From a virus (lineage: Duplodnaviria; Heunggongvirae; Uroviricota; Caudoviricetes), in IMG/VR virus record IMGVR_UViG_2619619125_000002: a DNA stretch of 13,796 nucleotides. One strand, written 5' to 3'. Below the pieces are notes generated by a model that did not search any database, was not told the DNA's origin, and worked only from the letters and a program-made list of their open reading frames with translations. This document shows positions 4,046 to 12,265 of this stretch, one piece after another (positions within the stretch are counted from its first letter, which is position 1; every line of letters begins with the position of its first letter). The position numbers and the translations under genes are program-made.

Positions 4046-4145
4046 AGCCTCACCTCCGCACGGAACGGATGGCATAGTTATTATGTGTAGGCTTTCAGAC
4101 ACATCAATCAGAGCCTTAATTGATATATATGCTGGAGACGATGCA

Positions 4146-4171
4146 ATATAAAAAGCTCGCCGTAGCGAGCT
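4146..4171 (-). terminator. Rho-independent terminator-like hairpin downstream of the second lipoprotein gene
   Basis: Perfect 7-bp stem agctcgc/gcgagct with a 4-nt loop, followed on the - strand by UUUUAUAU. Confidence 0.4.
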
Positions 4172-4296
4172 AATAAAATGTATTTCTCTGATATTATGTT
4201 TATTTGTATTAGCTCAGACTTGACATCACAGGTTTCGTATATAGAACATCATCAAATCTGTCAGTTTGCTATGAATGAGATATAGTAATTGAAGAG

Positions 4297-4692
4297 CTAA
4301 CCTCGCATGTCAAAGCCAGATTTCTGAAAATCTCTGTAGACTTCCGGATTGTTGAAGGCCGGAAATTTGGCTTTATGAGCTGCGGACTTTATCGCTTCGC
4401 AATAGGCTTTATCACCGTTACTGGTAGATATTTTTAACGCCGTGCCATCCTGAGAGAATTCCATATGCAACCTGCATTTTTTCCCTTTCCAGTTATGCGG
4501 CTCATCAAGTTTGGCATTAATTGCAGCTCTGATTCCCCGCGCTTGCGCCCCCCATTCATCCTGATCATCCCAGCGTCCTGAACTGCAACTACCTGTAGCA
4601 GTAGTTTTGTGGCAATCTGAAGGGTGTAAAGGTGTGCATCCCGCAACAAAACCGACCCAAAAAGTCAACATAACGATTTTCTTTAATCCCAC
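4297..4692 (-). CDS. Lipoprotein with divergent TolA C-terminal (domain III)-like fold, 131 aa, probable GTG start
   Basis: N-terminus MGLKKIVMLTFWVGFVAGC is a lipoprotein signal peptide (lipobox VAGC); GTG start at 4690-4692 preceded by AGGAG with an 8-nt spacer; C-terminal region (KKCRLHMEF...YCEAIKSAA...NPEVYRDFQ) parallels the paralog at 4843-5271. Confidence 0.65.
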   Translation of the reverse strand: MGLKKIVMLTFWVGFVAGCTPLHPSDCHKTTATGSCSSGRWDDQDEWGAQARGIRAAINAKLDEPHNWKGKKCRLHMEFSQDGTALKISTSNGDKAYCEAIKSAAHKAKFPAFNNPEVYRDFQKSGFDMRG

Positions 4693-4842
4693 TTCTTGCT
4701 CCTCAATCCATTAAAATCTCAGCAATAGTAGTTGTTACGTCCGCCACTGGCTCAGAGCTGACTATCCGCTAAATTTAGCTCAGTGCCGTAGCTGTGTCAG
4801 AACAAACCTAAGCCGAAACCGTTTATTACAAAACAATAAATA

Positions 4843-5271
4843 TCAGGGTTTAAAATCCAGCACCCCATTTTGAAATACTTTATATACTTCCGGCGAAGGG
4901 GGGGCAGGTATATCAGCATTCTTTATCGCATTCATCGCTTCACGACATAAATCGAGGTCTCCACTTTCTCTTTTAACCTCCAGTAGAAGGCCATTCGGGG
5001 CCATATGCATTCTCAGTGTACACTCTTTTCCTGAATACTTACTCGCATCCCCGAACTGTTTTTCGATGGCGCTCTTGATTTGATGGGCATACAGACGGAT
5101 ATCCTCACTAACATCAGAAGTACGTTCAGATGAACTCACATACTGTGTCTCTATTGCTTTATCGGAGTAATATGATGTACGGTCATGATAATTTGTCGAT
5201 ACAGCATCAGTGCACCCGATAATAATCCCACTAATAATCAACGTAAGAATTGATGCGCTACGAAAACCCAT
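4843..5271 (-). CDS. Lipoprotein with TolA C-terminal domain (TolA-III) homology, 142 aa
   Basis: Signal peptide with lipobox (IIGC); C-terminal 85 aa (YAHQIKSAIEKQFGDASKYSGKECTLRMHMAPNGLLLEVKRESGDLDLCREAMNAIKNADIPAPPSPEVYKVFQNGVLDFKP) aligns with the C-terminus of E. coli TolA as I remember it (YAGQIKSAIESKFYDASSYAGKTCTLRIKLAPDGMLLDIKPEGGDPALCQAALAAAKLAKIPKPPSQAVYEVFKNAPLDFKP); ATG at 5269-5271 with a GAGGA SD. Confidence 0.8.
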   Translation of the reverse strand: MGFRSASILTLIISGIIIGCTDAVSTNYHDRTSYYSDKAIETQYVSSSERTSDVSEDIRLYAHQIKSAIEKQFGDASKYSGKECTLRMHMAPNGLLLEVKRESGDLDLCREAMNAIKNADIPAPPSPEVYKVFQNGVLDFKP

Positions 5272-5300
5272 TTTTCCTCACATATGTCATATAGTAAAGG

Positions 5301-5330
5301 ATTATATATACCGTTGTTTTGGACGCTCAA
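5301..5330 (-). promoter_or_regulatory. Candidate sigma70 promoter for the TolA-domain lipoprotein gene (-35 TTGAGC, 18-bp spacer, -10 TATAAT)
   Basis: On the - strand, TATAAT (complement of 5301-5306) and TTGAGC (complement of 5325-5330) about 30 nt upstream of the ATG at 5271. Confidence 0.35.
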
Positions 5331-5860
5331 ACAGCGAATCAGATCAAATAAAACGCACATTTGTTAACATTTACACAAAGTCTGCGTGGGATATTCTGAA
5401 AGAATATCCATAATGTGGAGAGAATCTATTGAAGTGCATGGTGCCGGGTGCCTTCCGGTGAACAAAATGTTCGTGATACCTGTCGGCGACAGAAAAGGTT
5501 AATGGTATCACCCCACCGCACAGGGGGATTCACCATGCAGGAGTTTTCTTAGCAAACTCACTGCGCGCCCGGCAACTCCCAACCACATAAAATGCGGAGT
5601 TTGTGGTATTTATGCATATAACTCGCAGGAATTATCTTAAAAAACTGATGTCGATCCGGATTAAAAAGAAGCAGGTCATCATCAGATGACTGGAAAAAAG
5701 GAAAAAAAAAATACTCATCATACAGTTTTGATTGCAGGGATGAGCCTGCTATGCACAATATGCAGAATATAAGCAAGATAAAAATATGCAGGCATATTAT
5801 TTCGGATTTTGTTATTAACACAACCTTTTTAATAATCATTTGGCATACAATAAACCAGTC

Positions 5861-5887
5861 CAAAAAGAACCGCCTAAACAGGCGGTT
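5861..5887 (-). terminator. Terminator-like hairpin in the late leader region (aaccgcc / ggcggtt stem followed by a U-run on the - strand)
   Basis: 7-bp perfect stem with a 6-nt loop; - strand reads ...ggcggtt cuuuuugg. Confidence 0.35.
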
Positions 5888-6141
5888 GGTCAATACAAAG
5901 GATGCTTCGTCTTTATTATAGTAATCTGAGGCGTCGGGTGTCTTGTATCAGACAACATATTGTCCCGCTAAACAGCGAATTACAAACCACCCTGCAATGA
6001 TCTCTCATCTCATTTTATATGAGTTGACGACATCAGGATAACGCATCATCAGCCCCTGCCAAGAAATATCAAAACTCCCGCCAGCAATGTGTTATCACAA
6101 TATTGTAAAAAAAACACAGCACCGAAACTATAACTGGTCTC

Positions 6142-6150
6142 TGTTATAAT
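6142..6150 (+). promoter_or_regulatory. Extended -10 element TGtTATAAT on the + strand, flanked by a 9-bp inverted repeat (6132-6140 / 6162-6170)
   Basis: tgttataat at 6142-6150; aactggtct and agaccagtt flank it symmetrically; no good -35. Could drive a short + strand RNA ending at the 6205-6237 terminator, or be an operator or late-promoter-associated element. Confidence 0.25.
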
Positions 6151-6204
6151 TTGGAGCAGAAAGACCAGTTGCCCAACTAGCAGCATTCTCCCCTGCTTTC
6201 CTGA

Positions 6205-6237
6205 CGTAAAAAAACCGCATTAAGCGGTTTTTTTACG
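6205..6237. terminator. Bidirectional rho-independent terminator (14-bp perfect inverted repeat cgtaaaaaaaccgc / gcggtttttttacg), candidate tR' downstream of Q
   Basis: Perfect 14-bp palindromic arms with a 5-nt loop (attaa); GC core flanked by A7/T7 runs so it reads as hairpin plus U-run in both orientations; lies about 80-110 nt downstream of the Q stop. Confidence 0.6.
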
Positions 6238-6314
6238 ATGTCCATGTCTGCAATCCGCCTCGCGATACAGCTGTGCGAAGCATAGCAAAATTGAAGCAGT
6301 TTATACGTAAGAAA

Positions 6315-6857
6315 TCAAGCCATTTTCTCAGCAAATGATTCACGCATGGGAATATATAGGGCATACTCAGCAACAGCTAACCAATTAGCAATCCGTTTTT
6401 CGCATGTGCTAAAACACCACTCTGGGTGTCCATCATTTAGCAATTCAGCCATTTTGCGCTTAGTCATCCCCCGCCCTTCATAGCGTTGCCGGAGAATGCA
6501 AATCAATCCTGGATGCTCTGCCAGCACCTCACTTATGACTCGATCAATACATAACGCCTCTGCATCAGTACAATGCGCCAGCCAGCTCTTTTGCTTGCCG
6601 TTGATCATCTCTCGCAAAAACGCTTCCAGCTCAGCTTTCTCTATTCCCGCTTTTTTCATTCTACGCAGGGCTTCATTAATGGCTGTTTTCGTCAGTTTTT
6701 TGGATGCCAACAACTGATTGAACATATTCCCTGACCTGCCACCGCCAATATACGACCAGCGCCCCCACATACGTAGTTTTCCCTGAATCCAGACACTTTC
6801 CAGCGTGGTGAGGCGAAGGTGTTCTCCGCTTTTTCCTGTATTCGTTGGGTAAATCAT
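6315..6857 (-). CDS. Putative late-gene antitermination protein Q, 180 aa
   Basis: Sits immediately upstream of the late leader/terminator and the S-R-Rz cassette; contains an RMWGRW motif resembling the ERWGAW motif I recall in the DLP12 Q-like protein QuuD; Cys-containing C-terminal half; start overlaps the YbcO-like stop (ATGA). Confidence 0.6.
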   Translation of the reverse strand: MIYPTNTGKSGEHLRLTTLESVWIQGKLRMWGRWSYIGGGRSGNMFNQLLASKKLTKTAINEALRRMKKAGIEKAELEAFLREMINGKQKSWLAHCTDAEALCIDRVISEVLAEHPGLICILRQRYEGRGMTKRKMAELLNDGHPEWCFSTCEKRIANWLAVAEYALYIPMRESFAEKMA

Positions 6858-7144
6858 AAATGACCTTTCTTTCTCCAGATTTCTTGTGTGCGAAAAACCC
6901 CTTCAGCATGCATCAGGCGCAATTCTTCTTTGGTGTAATCGCTGGTTTTTACCCGCCCGTCGATTAGATCGTGGCATGAGCTACAGGCTATCGCCGCCTG
7001 CATATCGTGTGGTTTTGTCGCTGTTCCGCACGTCCCCGCCAGCCTGTAATGCGCCAGCACAGAGGTTTCGGGATTGTGATTGCAGTAGCCAGGGATTCTG
7101 ATCTGGCACATCTGGCCTTTAGCCGCTTTACGTAAATTCACCAT
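6854..7144 (-). CDS. YbcO-like (DUF1364) putative zinc-binding nuclease, 96 aa
   Basis: Size, Cys/His pattern (CxxxxxC ... CxxC ... CSSCHDLIDGR) and position just upstream of Q match the DLP12 ybcO / nin-region genes as remembered. Confidence 0.7.
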   Translation of the reverse strand: MVNLRKAAKGQMCQIRIPGYCNHNPETSVLAHYRLAGTCGTATKPHDMQAAIACSSCHDLIDGRVKTSDYTKEELRLMHAEGVFRTQEIWRKKGHL

Positions 7145-7743
7145 TACGCAAACTCCAGTAGTTGTGCGGCCACATTTTCAACTTCCTCCTGAGAGGAGAA
7201 TTTACGAAACAGAATCCAGTTCCACAGCACATTCAGTACAGATTTATAAACCTGCTGAAACTCGACTTCGTCCATATTCGCAAAAGCGATGGATTTTGCC
7301 CGACGCCCACGGCTACCGTCCGGATAAATATGCTCGGTGTAAAATCCGGCCTGAATGGTTACCCACTCGCGGAAAGCCTCAAACGACTTTAGCAACGCCG
7401 TATCCCGGGTTCTACGAGTCGCAACGGTGTTAAGGTATTGCTCTGCGGCATCACTCAGGGCTGGCGTGTGTTCCCGACCAACTGATTCGCACAGGTAATC
7501 AACGAAACCAGACAGCAGTTCTCGTTCGCGAGGCGTGATCGCCCCACCGACCGGAGTCCAGTAATCGAATCCCAGTTGCAGGAGTTTGAAAAAACGCTTG
7601 TGGAATGCGTAGTTACGCACACGCTTAAAGTCTGCGTGTATCCACTCACCTATTTTGATTTGATGCAGAAAATCGCAACTCTCCGGCGTCGCCGGGAGAA
7701 GTAAACCAGAAGAAGTTTGTTTGACCAGTTGTATATGCGCCAT
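7144..7743 (-). CDS. DUF1367-family phage protein (nin-region), 199 aa
   Basis: ATG at 7741-7743; stop overlaps the ybcO-like start (TAATG); position upstream of ybcO/Q typical of lambdoid nin-region genes; family assignment from memory. Confidence 0.6.
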   Translation of the reverse strand: MAHIQLVKQTSSGLLLPATPESCDFLHQIKIGEWIHADFKRVRNYAFHKRFFKLLQLGFDYWTPVGGAITPRERELLSGFVDYLCESVGREHTPALSDAAEQYLNTVATRRTRDTALLKSFEAFREWVTIQAGFYTEHIYPDGSRGRRAKSIAFANMDEVEFQQVYKSVLNVLWNWILFRKFSSQEEVENVAAQLLEFA

Positions 7744-7801
7744 TTCTCAATCTCTCGATGGCGCAGCGCAGCAGATGCCAGTTGTTCAGGCTGACGAATA
7801 A

Positions 7802-7829
7802 AGTATAAATAAACTGGCTATGGTGTAAA
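7802..7829 (-). promoter_or_regulatory. Candidate sigma70 promoter for the DUF1367-ybcO-Q operon (-35 TTTACA, 16-bp spacer, -10 TATACT)
   Basis: On the - strand about 60 nt upstream of the DUF1367 ATG, at the boundary with the AT-rich island. Confidence 0.3.
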
Positions 7830-8023
7830 GCCCCACATAGCATGAACAAACACTACATATCAAATAGCTGGTACAAGGATAGAAATACGACATTTATTAT
7901 TAAAAACGATTAGATAAATTACATTTTAATGTTATGCAAAAGTTCTTTTTTATCATAACATTTCAATAAAAGCATTACAGATGCAATCATCCCGTCATCA
8001 TCAATTATTTAAGGTGGTTAAAC

Positions 8024-8110
8024 ATGGAAAATAACAAGTTCGCACATCTCGCTCCTTTTTTATCCGTAATCCTTTTCGCTTGTTGTTTTATATGGGCATT
8101 ATTTTTATAA
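8024..8110 (+). CDS. Small hydrophobic ORF, 28 aa (MENNKFAHLAPFLSVILFACCFIWALFL), candidate small membrane protein
   Basis: ATG at 8024 preceded by the strong SD AAGGTGG with a 6-nt spacer; single predicted TM helix; lies in AT-rich DNA with no other ORF. Confidence 0.3.
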   Translation: MENNKFAHLAPFLSVILFACCFIWALFL

Positions 8111-8204
8111 AGTAGCCACATGATAAGTTGCTGGAATCATATTTCCCACTCAAGTCATTAACATTTGATAAGATATATCTAAAAGGACGCCTTTACATTA
8201 TTTA

Positions 8205-8231
8205 TGTGTATATAATTTATTTATATACACA
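8205..8231. repeat. Perfect 10-bp inverted repeat tgtgtatata (7-nt spacer) tatatacaca, candidate protein-binding site
   Basis: Read directly from the sequence; the left arm/spacer junction contains TATAAT (8211-8216). Confidence 0.3.
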
Positions 8232-8556
8232 GTAAAGGTATCCTGGGAAAATATTTATCGTTAAAAAATACATCATAAATAATTAAGCTGAAATTTCAGA
8301 ACACAACTAATACACACAATAAGGTTCAGTAACAATAATCTATGTGGACTACATCGAGATTTTTTGATTAAACTTTAATAACTTATTCCTAACACACAGA
8401 ATGCATAAACTAAAAGTAAAACAAATAGTTATACGAAAAACAACCATATTTATTATATCTTCTCCTCTAATCAACATATCAATTATGTGTTTCATAACAG
8501 CTTGACATAACCCTCAAAAACACGCATTTATAATGCATGTTTTTGATGAGGTGGTT

Positions 8557-8895
8557 ATGACACACAAGAGAATTCCTAAAGATTGGGTAATCAAACGCTC
8601 AACTCCGTTCTTCACAAAAGAGAACGTACCTTCAGCGTTATTAACACATCATAATACAGCAGCAGGTGTTTTTGGGCAGTTGTGCGTAATGGAAGGCACT
8701 GTAACATATTATGGTTTTACTGATGAGAATGCTACTGAACCGGAGATAAAAGTAGTCATTAATGCTGGCGCTTTTGCAACAAGCCCACCACAATACTGGC
8801 ACCGTGTTGAACTAAGCGATGATGCTCAGTTTAATATTAACTTTTGGGTCGCTCCAGACTTCTCGGGCGAAAAAGTCTATAGCACCAAAAAATAG
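8557..8895 (+). CDS. DUF1971-family protein (YeaR / TehB-N-terminal-domain-like), 112 aa
   Basis: Translation MTHKRIPKDWVIKRSTPFFTKE...VMEGTVTYYGFTDENATEPE...AGAFATSPPQYWH...FNINFWVAPD parallels E. coli YeaR as remembered (RSTPFW...VMHGAVKYLGYADEHSAEPD...AGQFAVFPPEKWH...FNIDFFVAPE); SD GAGGTGG before the ATG at 8557; own terminator downstream. Confidence 0.7.
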   Translation: MTHKRIPKDWVIKRSTPFFTKENVPSALLTHHNTAAGVFGQLCVMEGTVTYYGFTDENATEPEIKVVINAGAFATSPPQYWHRVELSDDAQFNINFWVAPDFSGEKVYSTKK

Positions 8896-8924
8896 ATGAT
8901 CATATTAAAAATGCTTTAACAGTC

Positions 8925-8961
8925 AGACCCGGCAGGGCTATCCCCGACGGGTCTCATTTTT
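8925..8961 (+). terminator. Rho-independent terminator downstream of the DUF1971 gene
   Basis: Long interrupted hairpin (agacccggcaggg ... ccccgacgggtct) followed by cattttt. Confidence 0.6.
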
Positions 8962-9618
8962 GTAAATATATTGGTTCTACATTGACAGGAGACTTCAACC
9001 ATAAGAAGTAATCTGAATACTTGAGCAATAAATTTACTTAAGATTAATGAGCGCACCTTGCCGGACAAAGATAAACCAAGGTAACACCTTTTTTCTAGCC
9101 AGTATGTAATCAATCAGAAAGCCGCTCCATAAGAACAACAGCAAGACAATAAATTGCCATTACAGCCGCAATAGCTAGCGCACATTTGAGAACCAGCACG
9201 ACAACCTCCTGTATTGGACGTACACCAGTTCTGATAAATATGAGGCTGTCTCATCATTGATTCAATATAACTATTGGGTATAGTTTCTGTGATTTTGTTC
9301 TGTAGAAATGGAACACAACAACCAGTCACCACCAGCACTTCTTTAAATACGCCAAGTCCGACGCAAGCTAACCTTCTAGTCCGCTTTGAGCGAGGAGCGG
9401 ACCAAACCCGGCCAACTGACTCTTAAAGGGGCCGCAGGAATTTTTCGTCTGAACTTTCGAAGCTCCTCTCCCTGAAGACAGAAAACTTCTGTGTGCTGTG
9501 GGAATATTGAATCTTTGCCTTAGATATAAATAATTTTATCCCGCCTGAAGTTTACATTATTTTATTTATCTGTTTTTCTAAATCAGACTGCACTCCTTAC
9601 TTAAATCAGGAGCCAGTC

Positions 9619-11010
9619 ATGCCATTTGTTATTTATGTGTTTACTATCAGTGCCTTTGCGCTCGGACTCGCGGAATTTGTCCCCATTGGGCTGACAGACG
9701 TTATGGCTCAGGGGTTGTGTGTGGGTGTGGAGCAGACCGGGGCAGCGGTTACAACCTATGCACTGGGGGCAACGTTCGCGGCACCCGTACTGTCTGCGCT
9801 GACAGCAAGCTGGAGCCGGAAAAATGTAATGCTTACAACTGCCGTTGTGTTTACTGCCGGTAGTCTGGCGGCCGCGTTTGCAGCCACATTACCTCAGCTC
9901 CTGTTAGCGCGGTTCATTGCTGGTCTGGGACACGGCCTGTTTCTGGCTGCGGCATCCAGTACCGCAGCTCGTCTTGCTGGACCGGGTAACTGCCCTGACT
10001 GTGGTGCGGTGATGGGCGACGCAACATACCAGGAAACATTCGATGAAGAGAGTCAGGTTGAAGCTAAGGAAAATGATCCGGAGGAAATGGAAGGCGCTGA
10101 ACATCCGCACAATGAGAATGCTGGCAGCGATCCGCATCGCGATTGCAGTGATGAAACTGGCGAAGTCGCAGATCCCGTAATCGTAGAAGACATAGAGCCA
10201 GGTATTTATTACGGAATTTCGAATGAGAATTACCACGCGGGTCCCGGTATCAGTAAGTCTCAGCTCGATGACATTGCTGATACTCCGGCACTATATTTGT
10301 GGCGTAAAAATGCCCCCGTGGACACCACAAAGACAAAAACGCTCGATTTAGGAACTGCTTTCCACTGCCGGGTACTTGAACCGGAAGAATTCAGTAACCG
10401 CTTTATCGTAGCACCTGAATTTAACCGCCGTACAAACGCCGGAAAAGAAGAAGAGAAAGCGTTTCTGATGGAATGCGCAAGCACAGGAAAAACGGTTATC
10501 ACTGCGGAAGAAGGCCGGAAAATTGAACTCATGTATCAAAGCGTTATGGCTTTGCCGCTGGGGCAATGGCTTGTTGAAAGCGCCGGACACGCTGAATCAT
10601 CAATTTACTGGGAAGATCCTGAAACAGGAATTTTGTGTCGGTGCCGTCCGGACAAAATTATCCCTGAATTTCACTGGATCATGGACGTGAAAACTACGGC
10701 GGATATTCAACGATTCAAAACCGCTTATTACGACTACCGCTATCACGTTCAGGATGCGTTCTACAGTGACGGTTATGAAGCACAGTTTGGAGTGCAGCCA
10801 ACTTTCGTTTTTCTGGTTGCCAGCACAACTATTGAATGCGGACGTTATCCGGTTGAAATTTTCATGATGGGCGAAGAAGCAAAACTGGCAGGTCAACAGG
10901 AATATCACCGCAATCTGCGAACCCTGTCTGACTGCCTGAATACCGATGAATGGCCAGCTATTAAGACATTATCACTGCCCCGCTGGGCTAAGGAATATGC
11001 AAATGACTAA
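9619..11010 (+). CDS. recE: Truncated exonuclease VIII (RecE C-terminal catalytic domain) fused in-frame to a foreign N-terminal segment of about 120 aa resembling the first TM helices of an MFS transporter
   Basis: C-terminal ~300 aa (...[17 protein letters not shown]... ending [11 protein letters not shown]) is the RecE nuclease domain with a PD-(D/E)xK-like D-x-K motif and overlaps the recT start by 8 nt; N-terminal 1 to ~120 ([25 protein letters not shown]...[18 protein letters not shown]) is hydrophobic and MFS-like; real ATG with AGGAG SD at 9608-9612. Confidence 0.8.
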
Positions 11011-11812
11011 GCAACCACCAATCGCAAAAGCCGATCTGCAAAAAACTCAGGGAAACCGTGCACCAGCAGCAGTTAAAAATAGCGACGTGATTAGTTTTAT
11101 TAACCAGCCATCAATGAAAGAGCAACTGGCAGCAGCTCTTCCACGCCATATGACGGCTGAACGTATGATCCGTATCGCCACCACAGAAATTCGTAAAGTT
11201 CCGGCGTTAGGAAACTGTGACACTATGAGTTTTGTCAGTGCGATCGTACAGTGTTCACAGCTCGGACTTGAGCCAGGTAGCGCCCTCGGTCATGCATATT
11301 TACTGCCTTTTGGTAATAAAAACGAAAAGAGCGGTAAAAAGAACGTTCAGCTAATCATTGGCTATCGCGGCATGATTGATCTGGCTCGCCGTTCTGGTCA
11401 AATCGCCAGCCTGTCAGCCCGTGTTGTCCGTGAAGGTGACGAGTTTAGCTTCGAATTTGGCCTTGATGAAAAGTTAATACACCGCCCGGGAGAAAACGAA
11501 GATGCCCCGGTTACCCACGTCTATGCTGTCGCAAGACTGAAAGACGGAGGTACTCAGTTTGAAGTTATGACGCGCAAACAGATTGAGCTGGTGCGCAGCC
11601 TGAGTAAAGCTGGTAATAACGGGCCGTGGGTAACTCACTGGGAAGAAATGGCAAAGAAAACGGCTATTCGTCGCCTGTTCAAATATCTGCCCGTATCAAT
11701 TGAGATCCAGCGTGCAGTATCAATGGATGAAAAGGAACCACTGACAATCGATCCTGCAGATTCCTCTGTATTAACCGGGGAATACAGTGTAATCGATAAT
11801 TCAGAGGAATAA
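11003..11812 (+). CDS. recT: Recombinase RecT (single-strand annealing protein), 269 aa
   Basis: Translation from [35 protein letters not shown]... matches remembered RecT end-to-end; ATG at 11003 overlaps the recE 3' end. Confidence 0.95.
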
Positions 11813-11820
11813 TTCAGCCT

Positions 11821-11839
11821 GGCGGTGTAATGCACCGCC
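11821..11839. other. Hairpin ggcggtg(taatg)caccgcc between recT and ralR
   Basis: 7-bp perfect stem; no immediate U-run on either strand; possibly an RNA structural or processing element. Confidence 0.25.
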
Positions 11840-11868
11840 AACTTGAAATATTTTTTATGAGAAAAATT

Positions 11869-12063
11869 ATGAGATATGACAATGTTAAACCATGTCCATT
11901 TTGTGGTTGTCCATCAGTAACGGTGAAAGCCATTTCAGGATATTACCGAGCGAAGTGTAACGGATGCGAATCCCGAACCGGTTATGGTGGAAGTGAAAAA
12001 GAAGCACTCGAAAGATGGAATAAACGAACCACTGGAAATAATAATGGAGGTGTTCATGTATAA
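11869..12063 (+). CDS. ralR: RalR, Rac prophage restriction-alleviation protein / type I toxin (DNase), 64 aa
   Basis: Translation MRYDNVKPCPFCGCPSVTVKAISGYYRAKCNGCESRTGYGGSEKEALERWNKRTTGNNNGGVHV matches remembered RalR; stop overlaps the ydaC start. Confidence 0.9.
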   Translation: MRYDNVKPCPFCGCPSVTVKAISGYYRAKCNGCESRTGYGGSEKEALERWNKRTTGNNNGGVHV

Positions 12064-12265
12064 AATTACCGCCACTATTGAAAAGGAAGGTGGCACTCCT
12101 ACTAACTGGACAAGATATTCAAAATCTAAACTAACGAAATCAGAATGCGAAAAAATGCTCTCAGGTAAAAAAGAAGCAGGCGTTTCCAGAGAGCAGAAAG
12201 TAAAACTGATAAATTTTAATTGCGAGAAACTTCAGTCCTCGAGAATTGCATTGTATTCAAATTAA
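12056..12265 (+). CDS. ydaC: YdaC, Rac prophage small protein, 69 aa
   Basis: Translation MYKITATIEKEGGTPTNWTRYSKSKLTKSECEKMLSGKKEAGVSREQKVKLINFNCEKLQSSRIALYSN; SD GGAGG upstream of the ATG at 12056. Confidence 0.85.
   Translation: MYKITATIEKEGGTPTNWTRYSKSKLTKSECEKMLSGKKEAGVSREQKVKLINFNCEKLQSSRIALYSN

Follow-up and report, generated by a model that had tools for sequence, protein, structure and literature searches.

The 13,796-nt stretch of DNA analyzed here (IMG/VR record IMGVR_UViG_2619619125_000002; below, "the window" means this whole stretch) is part of a Rac prophage integrated at ttcA, and is identical to positions 2,410,028-2,423,823 of the chromosome of Escherichia coli SW071614, a wastewater isolate. 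It carries a chimeric open reading frame (ORF), upstream of recT, in which the 5´ end of an MFS transporter gene continues into the 3´ part of recE. We found that a single illegitimate-recombination event, a deletion between copies of a 3-nt microhomology, gave rise to this chimera. The fusion is genuine, although few genomes have it, and most likely came about as an ordinary side effect of prophage decay. In our estimate, the chimera is probably the deletion product of a decaying, cargo-carrying Rac prophage and a neutral remnant with little or no activity.

Both parents of the chimera are present in the Rac prophage of E. coli strain 165, where the MFS gene and recE are co-oriented and lie 12.9 kb apart. 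Within 23 kb, the genes of this prophage run DUF1971, MFS (399 aa), gamma-glutamylcyclotransferase (GGCT), LysR, DUF2254 (-) and BCCT transporter (-), and then DUF977, replication genes, YdaT, YdaS-like, RacR-like, ydaF, sieB, kilR, ydaE, racC, recE (866 aa) and recT. Relative to strain 165, the window shows a single clean deletion of 12,937 bp, which spans MFS nt 372 to recE nt 1577; on its two sides, 5.5 and 3.8 kb of flanking DNA match strain 165 at 99.9% identity. The flanks of the junction have imperfect similarity (CTGGACCGGG-TAA versus CTGG-CGGGGATAA), and the 24-mer that spans it is GCTGGACCGGGTAACTGCCCTGAC. In the protein, ARLAGPG (ending at residue 123) is followed by N (residue 124, which is RecE N527) and CPDCG. 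Lost in the deletion were cargo genes, replication genes, racR, ydaS/T, sieB, kilR, racC, and recE codons 1-526. No evidence contradicting a deletion origin was found in the genome comparisons.

A preliminary description of this DNA, made from the sequence without database searches, had called the MFS gene foreign. It is instead a cargo gene resident in a common variant of Rac, and the internal deletion placed it beside recE. The segment at window positions 8300-9976, comprising the DUF1971 gene and the MFS 5´ end, is entire in 157 genomes, and full-length recE-recT is found in 1,636 of the 5,426 complete genomes searched. We considered the possibility that the MFS part was foreign DNA inserted horizontally at recE, and rejected it given that both genes occur in one prophage in 157 genomes. 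In strain 165, positions 4053-11365 of the prophage locus (L004) hold a cargo block of ~8 kb between nin-like and replication genes, consisting of the DUF1971/TehB-like, MFS, gamma-glutamylcyclotransferase, LysR, DUF2254 and BCCT transporter genes. Part or all of this block is present in about 1,800 E. coli genomes.

The ancestor had the order DUF1971-MFS-GGCT-LysR...replication genes-ydaT/ydaS-racR-sieB-kilR-racC-recE-recT on one strand, and the intervening DNA was removed in one event that joined the two broken genes in frame. The essentiality of racR is due to ydaS/T, which RacR represses (PMC5700377, PMC5700373). Removal of the entire immunity/kil block at once would be a viable deletion, because racR is essential only while ydaS/T (and kilR) are present, and such whole-block deletion would represent a common route of prophage inactivation. 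That the two genes were joined in frame probably reflects chance (1 in 3) rather than selection.

Anatomy of the chimeric open reading frame

The chimeric ORF spans 1392 nt and is uninterrupted across the junction in one frame (Table 1). Much of the preliminary description was borne out by a genome search, which found the intact counterpart of the 5´ end in the MFS gene of strain 165 (371 nt identical, up to the TAA junction), and by alignment to full-length RecE, which places the first RecE-derived residue at N527 and assigns the N-terminal 123 aa to the MFS gene. The ORF overlapping recT indeed encodes only the C-terminal nuclease portion of RecE (residues 527-866, by Pfam, NCBIfam and 3H4R matches). 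Its first ~120 codons, proposed to represent TM1-TM4 of a DHA-type MFS transporter, proved to be codons identical to the MFS gene (1-123) with four hydrophobic spans. The fusion is in frame as described, with MFS_1 and DUF3799 in one uninterrupted 463-aa ORF. The ATG and AGGAG that had been judged genuine both belong to the intact MFS gene, and the ATG is the annotated start in strain 165. The breakpoint had been placed near nt 9960-10020, a range that includes the true TAA, and the protein junction lies two residues to the right of the one marked at the time.

Table 1. Features of the chimera and its neighbors, in coordinates of the window
Feature	Position	Strand	Remarks
DUF1971/TehB-like cargo gene	8533..8895	+	Pfam DUF1971, E 2.6e-26; annotated DUF1971 protein in H1 and strain 165
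Candidate sigma-70 promoter of MFS gene	9507..9534	+	TTGAAT-16-AATAAT; 9/12 consensus match only
Shine-Dalgarno sequence	9608..9612	+	AGGAG; 6-nt spacer to ATG
Chimeric ORF MFS(1-123)::RecE(527-866)	9619..11010	+	463 aa, ATG start
MFS-derived segment	9619..9989	+	nt 1-371 of 1200-nt gene; identical to strain 165 MFS gene
Deletion junction	9987..9989	+	3-nt microhomology TAA common to both parents
recE-derived segment	9987..11010	+	last 1024 nt of 2601-nt gene, RecE N527-D866 and stop; identical to strain 165 recE
Acidic linker	9988..10218	+	chimera residues 124-200 (RecE 527-603); 23 D/E versus 2 K/R; outside crystallized domain
Complete RecE nuclease domain	10222..11007	+	chimera residues 202-463 (RecE 605-866); aligned gap-free to PDB 3H4R residues 4-265, E 3.5e-181
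PD-(D/E)XK motif	10651..10692	+	RPD (D748)...MDVK (D759, K761), which are chimera D345, D356 and K358; motif positions computed
recT	11003..11812	+	269 aa; Pfam RecT, E 1.2e-55; PGAP start

Protein family searches agree with this division. Pfam MFS_1 covered chimera residues 9-122 with positions 2-116 of its 347-position profile (E 1e-12); in the same frame, the PD-(D/E)XK-like DUF3799 matched residues 212-447 (E 1.4e-28). The NCBIfam model for exodeoxyribonuclease VIII (NF007259) aligned with chimera residues 114-463 over profile positions 528-877 of 877, with a score of 772 bits that falls below the equivalog cut-off of 1269. The Pfam family for the RecE N-terminus, PF06630, had no match in the chimera, where RecE residues 1-526 are deleted. 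Judged by its N-terminal region and its equivalog score, the chimera is not a full-length RecE.

The MFS part, which comes from a DHA1-like transporter, has four hydrophobic spans (TM1-TM4) within residues 1-113, with R67/K68 and R118 in predicted cytoplasmic loops. Over its residues 44-162, the sugar efflux transporter SotB (6KKI) aligns with chimera residues 7-125. The MFS part breaks off in the cytoplasmic TM4-TM5 loop, and because the helices ahead of the break are even in number, the RecE part is predicted to lie on the cytoplasmic side. The intact MFS parent (WP_001117227.1 of strain 165) has hydrophobic spans throughout its 399 aa; its best NCBIfam matches, all under cut-off, are Cmx/CmrA-like, sugar transporter, AraJ, NepI and TIGR00880 (TC 2.A.1.2). 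The chimera cannot be a transporter, since only 4 of 12 helices are present.

In the nuclease domain, the chimera differs from 3H4R at one aligned core position (P/L, residue 255) and at the first aligned residue of the crystallized construct. CRPDK (RecE 745-749) and IMDVK (RecE 757-761) are both found in the chimera, and the motif is invariant in our alignment A2. These segments contain RecE D748, D759 and K761, which we take to be the catalytic residues. Base composition shifts at the junction, as would be expected where two different genes are joined: the MFS part, whose coding strand is T-rich, has a GC content of 0.55-0.58, and the recE part one of 0.46-0.50. Downstream, recT is intact and has its own Shine-Dalgarno sequence (AAGGAA), and its ATG at 11003 overlaps the chimera stop at 11008-11010 (ATGACTAA). 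An AlphaFold2 model of the chimera, built from a 17-sequence alignment, was unusable (mean pLDDT 33, pTM 0.25), and the architecture given here rests on the sequence matches.

In public records, the exact protein is labeled "MFS transporter" in GenBank and UniRef (EFO4444230.1, UPI00098B2997), and the RefSeq PGAP annotation presents the chimera locus as two adjacent pseudogenes. Neither label conveys that a complete RecE nuclease domain is encoded, which is an annotation problem.

Distribution and parallel truncations of Rac

The exact junction was found in two of the 5,426 complete genomes, SW071614 and GPEC87-32-644, the latter with an additional IS3 in the DUF1367 gene. Counting all sources, it is carried by about 26 assemblies, complete genomes included. 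A large protein collection holds the exact protein on 20 contigs, under the name "MFS transporter [Escherichia coli]", along with four close variants of the chimera: G24E, V264I, V264I together with G391E, and one whose C-terminal end, at the recT start, is altered. Every contig that was read had the Rac-at-ttcA context. The 30-nt junction sequence was not found in JGI metagenome contigs or in GTDB species-representative genomes. The carriers differ from the window by only 0-2 single-nucleotide polymorphisms (SNPs) over 5-8 kb, which indicates one recent event in one lineage.

Other Rac copies have been truncated in the same region by separate events. In ET729 (L002, 6525-8397), MFS nt 709 is joined to recE nt 1435 at a 2-nt microhomology; this junction is out of frame, and the MFS frame stops 26 codons past it. 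SCZE5 (L005, 17391-18624) and XH993 have an opposite-strand ydaU fragment joined to recE nt 1601, and in Z0117EC0148 (L003, 6632-8142) an IS1 occupies the interval from 44 nt before the MFS ATG to recE nt 1799. Strain 1506 (L006, 10320-11334) has an IS1-associated deletion that ends just upstream of kilR and leaves recE intact. BL21, a widely used laboratory strain (H120, NZ_CP010816.1, 1368317-1370218), matches recE in two pieces that cover 56% of recE-recT and are annotated as two fragments, a pattern that indicates an internal recE deletion.

The stretch immediately before the nuclease domain, nt 1435-1799, contains four of the recE breakpoints, that of the window included. Only the junction in the window is in frame with a co-oriented ORF, a proportion (one of four) that agrees with the chance expectation of 1 in 3. 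The sister variants were ascertained with a partial bias towards window-like loci. We considered whether the breakpoints at nt 1435, 1578, 1601 and 1799 reflect selection for the nuclease domain, and rejected this idea as unsupported, because the cases were found by their likeness to the window, and an evenly spaced sample of recE-recT matches has endpoints elsewhere (recE nt 422, 501 and 720, and nt 2644 inside recT). We see no sign of selection in a fusion that is both rare and clonal, or in parallel truncations whose endpoints and frames are unrelated.

The chimera shares much with the deletion pseudogenes of decaying prophages: a clean microhomology deletion, loss of the immunity/replication/kil block, restriction to a lineage, annotation as pseudogenes by PGAP, and many parallel truncations in other Rac copies. 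In contrast to such pseudogenes, its fragments lie in frame behind intact translation signals and could encode a chimeric protein. The locus represents a cleanly resolved case of prophage decay making chimeric ORFs, as its two parents, its precise breakpoints and a set of sister deletions have all been identified. The kind of event is known; it is new only as a natural, membrane-anchored version, one that is already in public databases under the wrong label.

A possible natural counterpart of sbcA and other alternatives

Some observations weigh against an inert remnant. The lineage has lasted long enough to turn up in about 26 samples, with chicken and wastewater among the sources, and the variants of the ORF comprise only three missense forms plus the altered C-terminal end. 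The chimera also has a good Shine-Dalgarno sequence and ATG, its nuclease domain is intact with the catalytic residues in place, and recT, which overlaps it, is intact as well. These features would fit a different reading, in which the fusion is a natural sbcA-like allele: MFS signals would drive constitutive synthesis of an active RecE nuclease domain and of coupled RecT, RecE would be membrane-tethered or proteolytically released, and the lineage would have a standing RecET recombination pathway. We consider this reading unlikely.

In K-12, recET is fully repressed, and rare sbcA mutations activate it (PMC3945230, PMC10956419). The preliminary description had attributed the silence of K-12 recE to the lack of a promoter, which is not the case, as recET is silent by repression instead (PMC3945230). 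It was right that the C-terminal domain alone suffices: RecE 564-866 is reported to substitute genetically for the full protein (PMC11611040), RecE from residue 588 (588-866) together with RecT is as active as lambda Red (PMC3945230), and the exonuclease domain corresponds to the last ~260 aa, with a dispensable N-terminus (PMC13048471). The RecE versions used in recombineering (588-866 or 602-866 with RecT; domain 564-866, 3H4R) all fall within residues 527-866 retained in the chimera, which, unlike them, also has 123 N-terminal residues of a polytopic membrane protein and putative expression signals of its own. Heterologous N-terminal fusions to the RecE C-terminus are reported to restore function (Chu, Templin and Clark 1989, J Bacteriol 171:2101, cited in PMC13048471).

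As in laboratory recE fusions and sbcA alleles, an in-frame deletion has put the start of an ORF from upstream in place of the N-terminal part of recE, while recT and the C-terminal nuclease domain have been kept. The RacR-like repressor gene is gone from the window, which would relieve Rac repression. Unlike those alleles, the chimera is found in wild isolates that were not recBC-selected, its partner is a transporter cargo gene from 12.9 kb away rather than a neighboring Rac gene, and its locus is without the native early promoter. Another natural fusion is P0076/P0077 of Salmonella Typhimurium DT104 (714 aa), where a non-RecE N-terminus (Phage_integrase Pfam PF22022, PF00589) likewise precedes the RecE C-terminal region. 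That fusion belongs to another species, has another partner, and breaks at about RecE residue 377.

In favor of activation, the junction is in frame behind an authentic Shine-Dalgarno sequence and ATG; RecE 527-866 contains the region reported to be sufficient; and the predicted topology puts the nuclease in the cytoplasm. Given an active MFS promoter or read-through from the DUF1971 gene, translation could start from the MFS signals and would yield a protein that begins with four membrane helices, continues in an acidic linker of 77 residues and ends in the RecE nuclease domain, which is intact. The insertion of such a protein would be N-in and would leave the nuclease domain at the cytoplasmic side of the membrane, and translation reaching the overlapping recT start would favor RecT synthesis. 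On the other side, four helices orphaned from a 12-helix transporter would probably be misfolded or degraded, and tethering could hinder tetramer assembly and access to DNA.

Loss of the RacR-like repressor gene would favor expression, but the same deletion took out the early-left region, native early promoter included, that normally precedes kilR/racC/recE. Also gone is the LysR-family regulator gene, which in the intact prophage is co-transcribed with the MFS gene and overlaps the MFS-GGCT unit at its end. The candidate promoter of the MFS gene (Table 1) is a weak match, and sigma-70-like sites are no commoner in the region than in shuffled sequence (6 versus 4.7 +/- 2.3, not significant on its own). 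The DUF1971 gene, which lies upstream of and is co-oriented with the chimera, could be a source of transcription. Read-through from this gene into the chimera is possible, because no terminator-like site on the + strand intervenes between it and position 9619. The best sigma-70 consensus match of the region, ATGACA-18-TATATT (10/12, at 10268-10297 on the + strand, by consensus only), falls within the part of the coding sequence that derives from recE, some 700 nt before recT.

The rarity and clonality of the fusion, with sister truncations that are out of frame or unfused to an ORF, also speak against an allele maintained for its activity. Somewhat less probable still, in our view, is the full scenario of a wild E. 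coli lineage with constitutively expressed RecET, in which the nuclease would be anchored by four helices or released by cleavage in the acidic linker, and RecT would be made by translational coupling. If this were true, sbcA strains would have a natural counterpart in this lineage, which would show altered recombination, phage-mosaic formation or restriction alleviation. A chimera that is expressed and active would represent a natural gene-fusion route to RecET activation, otherwise known only from laboratory K-12 mutants, and would provide a standing RecA-independent recombination system with an unusual membrane-anchored exonuclease. The sbcA class is defined by exonuclease VIII expression and by recBC suppression, and the promoter evidence for the chimera is weak. 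For this reason we class the locus not as an sbcA-type allele but as a chimera made by deletion in a decaying prophage, one that might act in the way of an sbcA fusion.

A two-step origin would hint at selection for RecE/RecT expression, in the manner of the laboratory suppression of a recE frameshift by fusion. In this scenario, an out-of-frame deletion like that of ET729 would have been followed by a second deletion of 481 bp that restored the frame. In ET729 the deletion runs from MFS nt 710 to recE nt 1434, which places it within that of the window, and the difference between the two, 338 + 143 = 481 nt, is 1 mod 3 and exactly cancels the frame error, but for any two nested deletions the probability of such agreement in frame is 1 in 3. 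In addition, the ET729 junction is unique among the complete genomes, two SNPs are found in the retained part of its recE, and a hokD-containing segment replaces the sequence upstream of window position ~9095 (the DUF1971 region). The window, on the other hand, is identical to the intact prophage on either side of its junction. A single 12.9-kb deletion is more parsimonious because the window matches the intact prophage at both edges, and we regard two steps as very improbable. An artefact of assembly or annotation, with fragments that are not in fact contiguous, has a negligible chance of being correct, as the junction is identical in two complete chromosomes and about 24 further contigs from different samples (NCBI, ENA, Logan), the PGAP split is a matter of annotation convention, and we found no point in its favor.

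Surroundings of the chimera in the window

Read in the + direction, the window begins with tfaR, trkG, lysis genes and TolA-like ORFs, followed by DUF1133, DUF1364 and DUF1367, and ends with the DUF1971 gene, the chimeric ORF, recT, ralR, rcbA, xisR and intR. No Rfam family matched within the chimera coordinates, 9619-11010. Downstream of it, the Lar/RalR ORF occupies 11830-12063, and the antitoxin sRNA RalA (RF02694, 225 bits) was found at 12062-12240 on the - strand, directly downstream of ralR and antisense to the rcbA (DUF1187) coding region. Two other Rfam matches above the gathering score, both on the - strand, are IS009 (221 bits, 35-233), in or near tfaR, and the sRNA STnc100 (82 bits, 5382-5568), in the spacer upstream of the TolA-like ORFs.

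Two prophage ORFs on the - strand encode TolA C-terminal domains (4297-4692, Pfam E 1.2e-14, and 4843-5271, E 2.3e-23), and in related strains PGAP annotates one TolA-domain ORF as a truncated tolA pseudogene. In the spacer at 8896-9618, the small minus-strand ORFs of 65 aa and 74 aa had no Pfam match, and the 74-aa ORF had no NCBIfam match either. The latter, at 9114-9338 between the DUF1971 gene and the chimera, is unannotated and encodes a very cysteine-rich peptide (...CASYCGCNGNLLSCCCSYGAAF).

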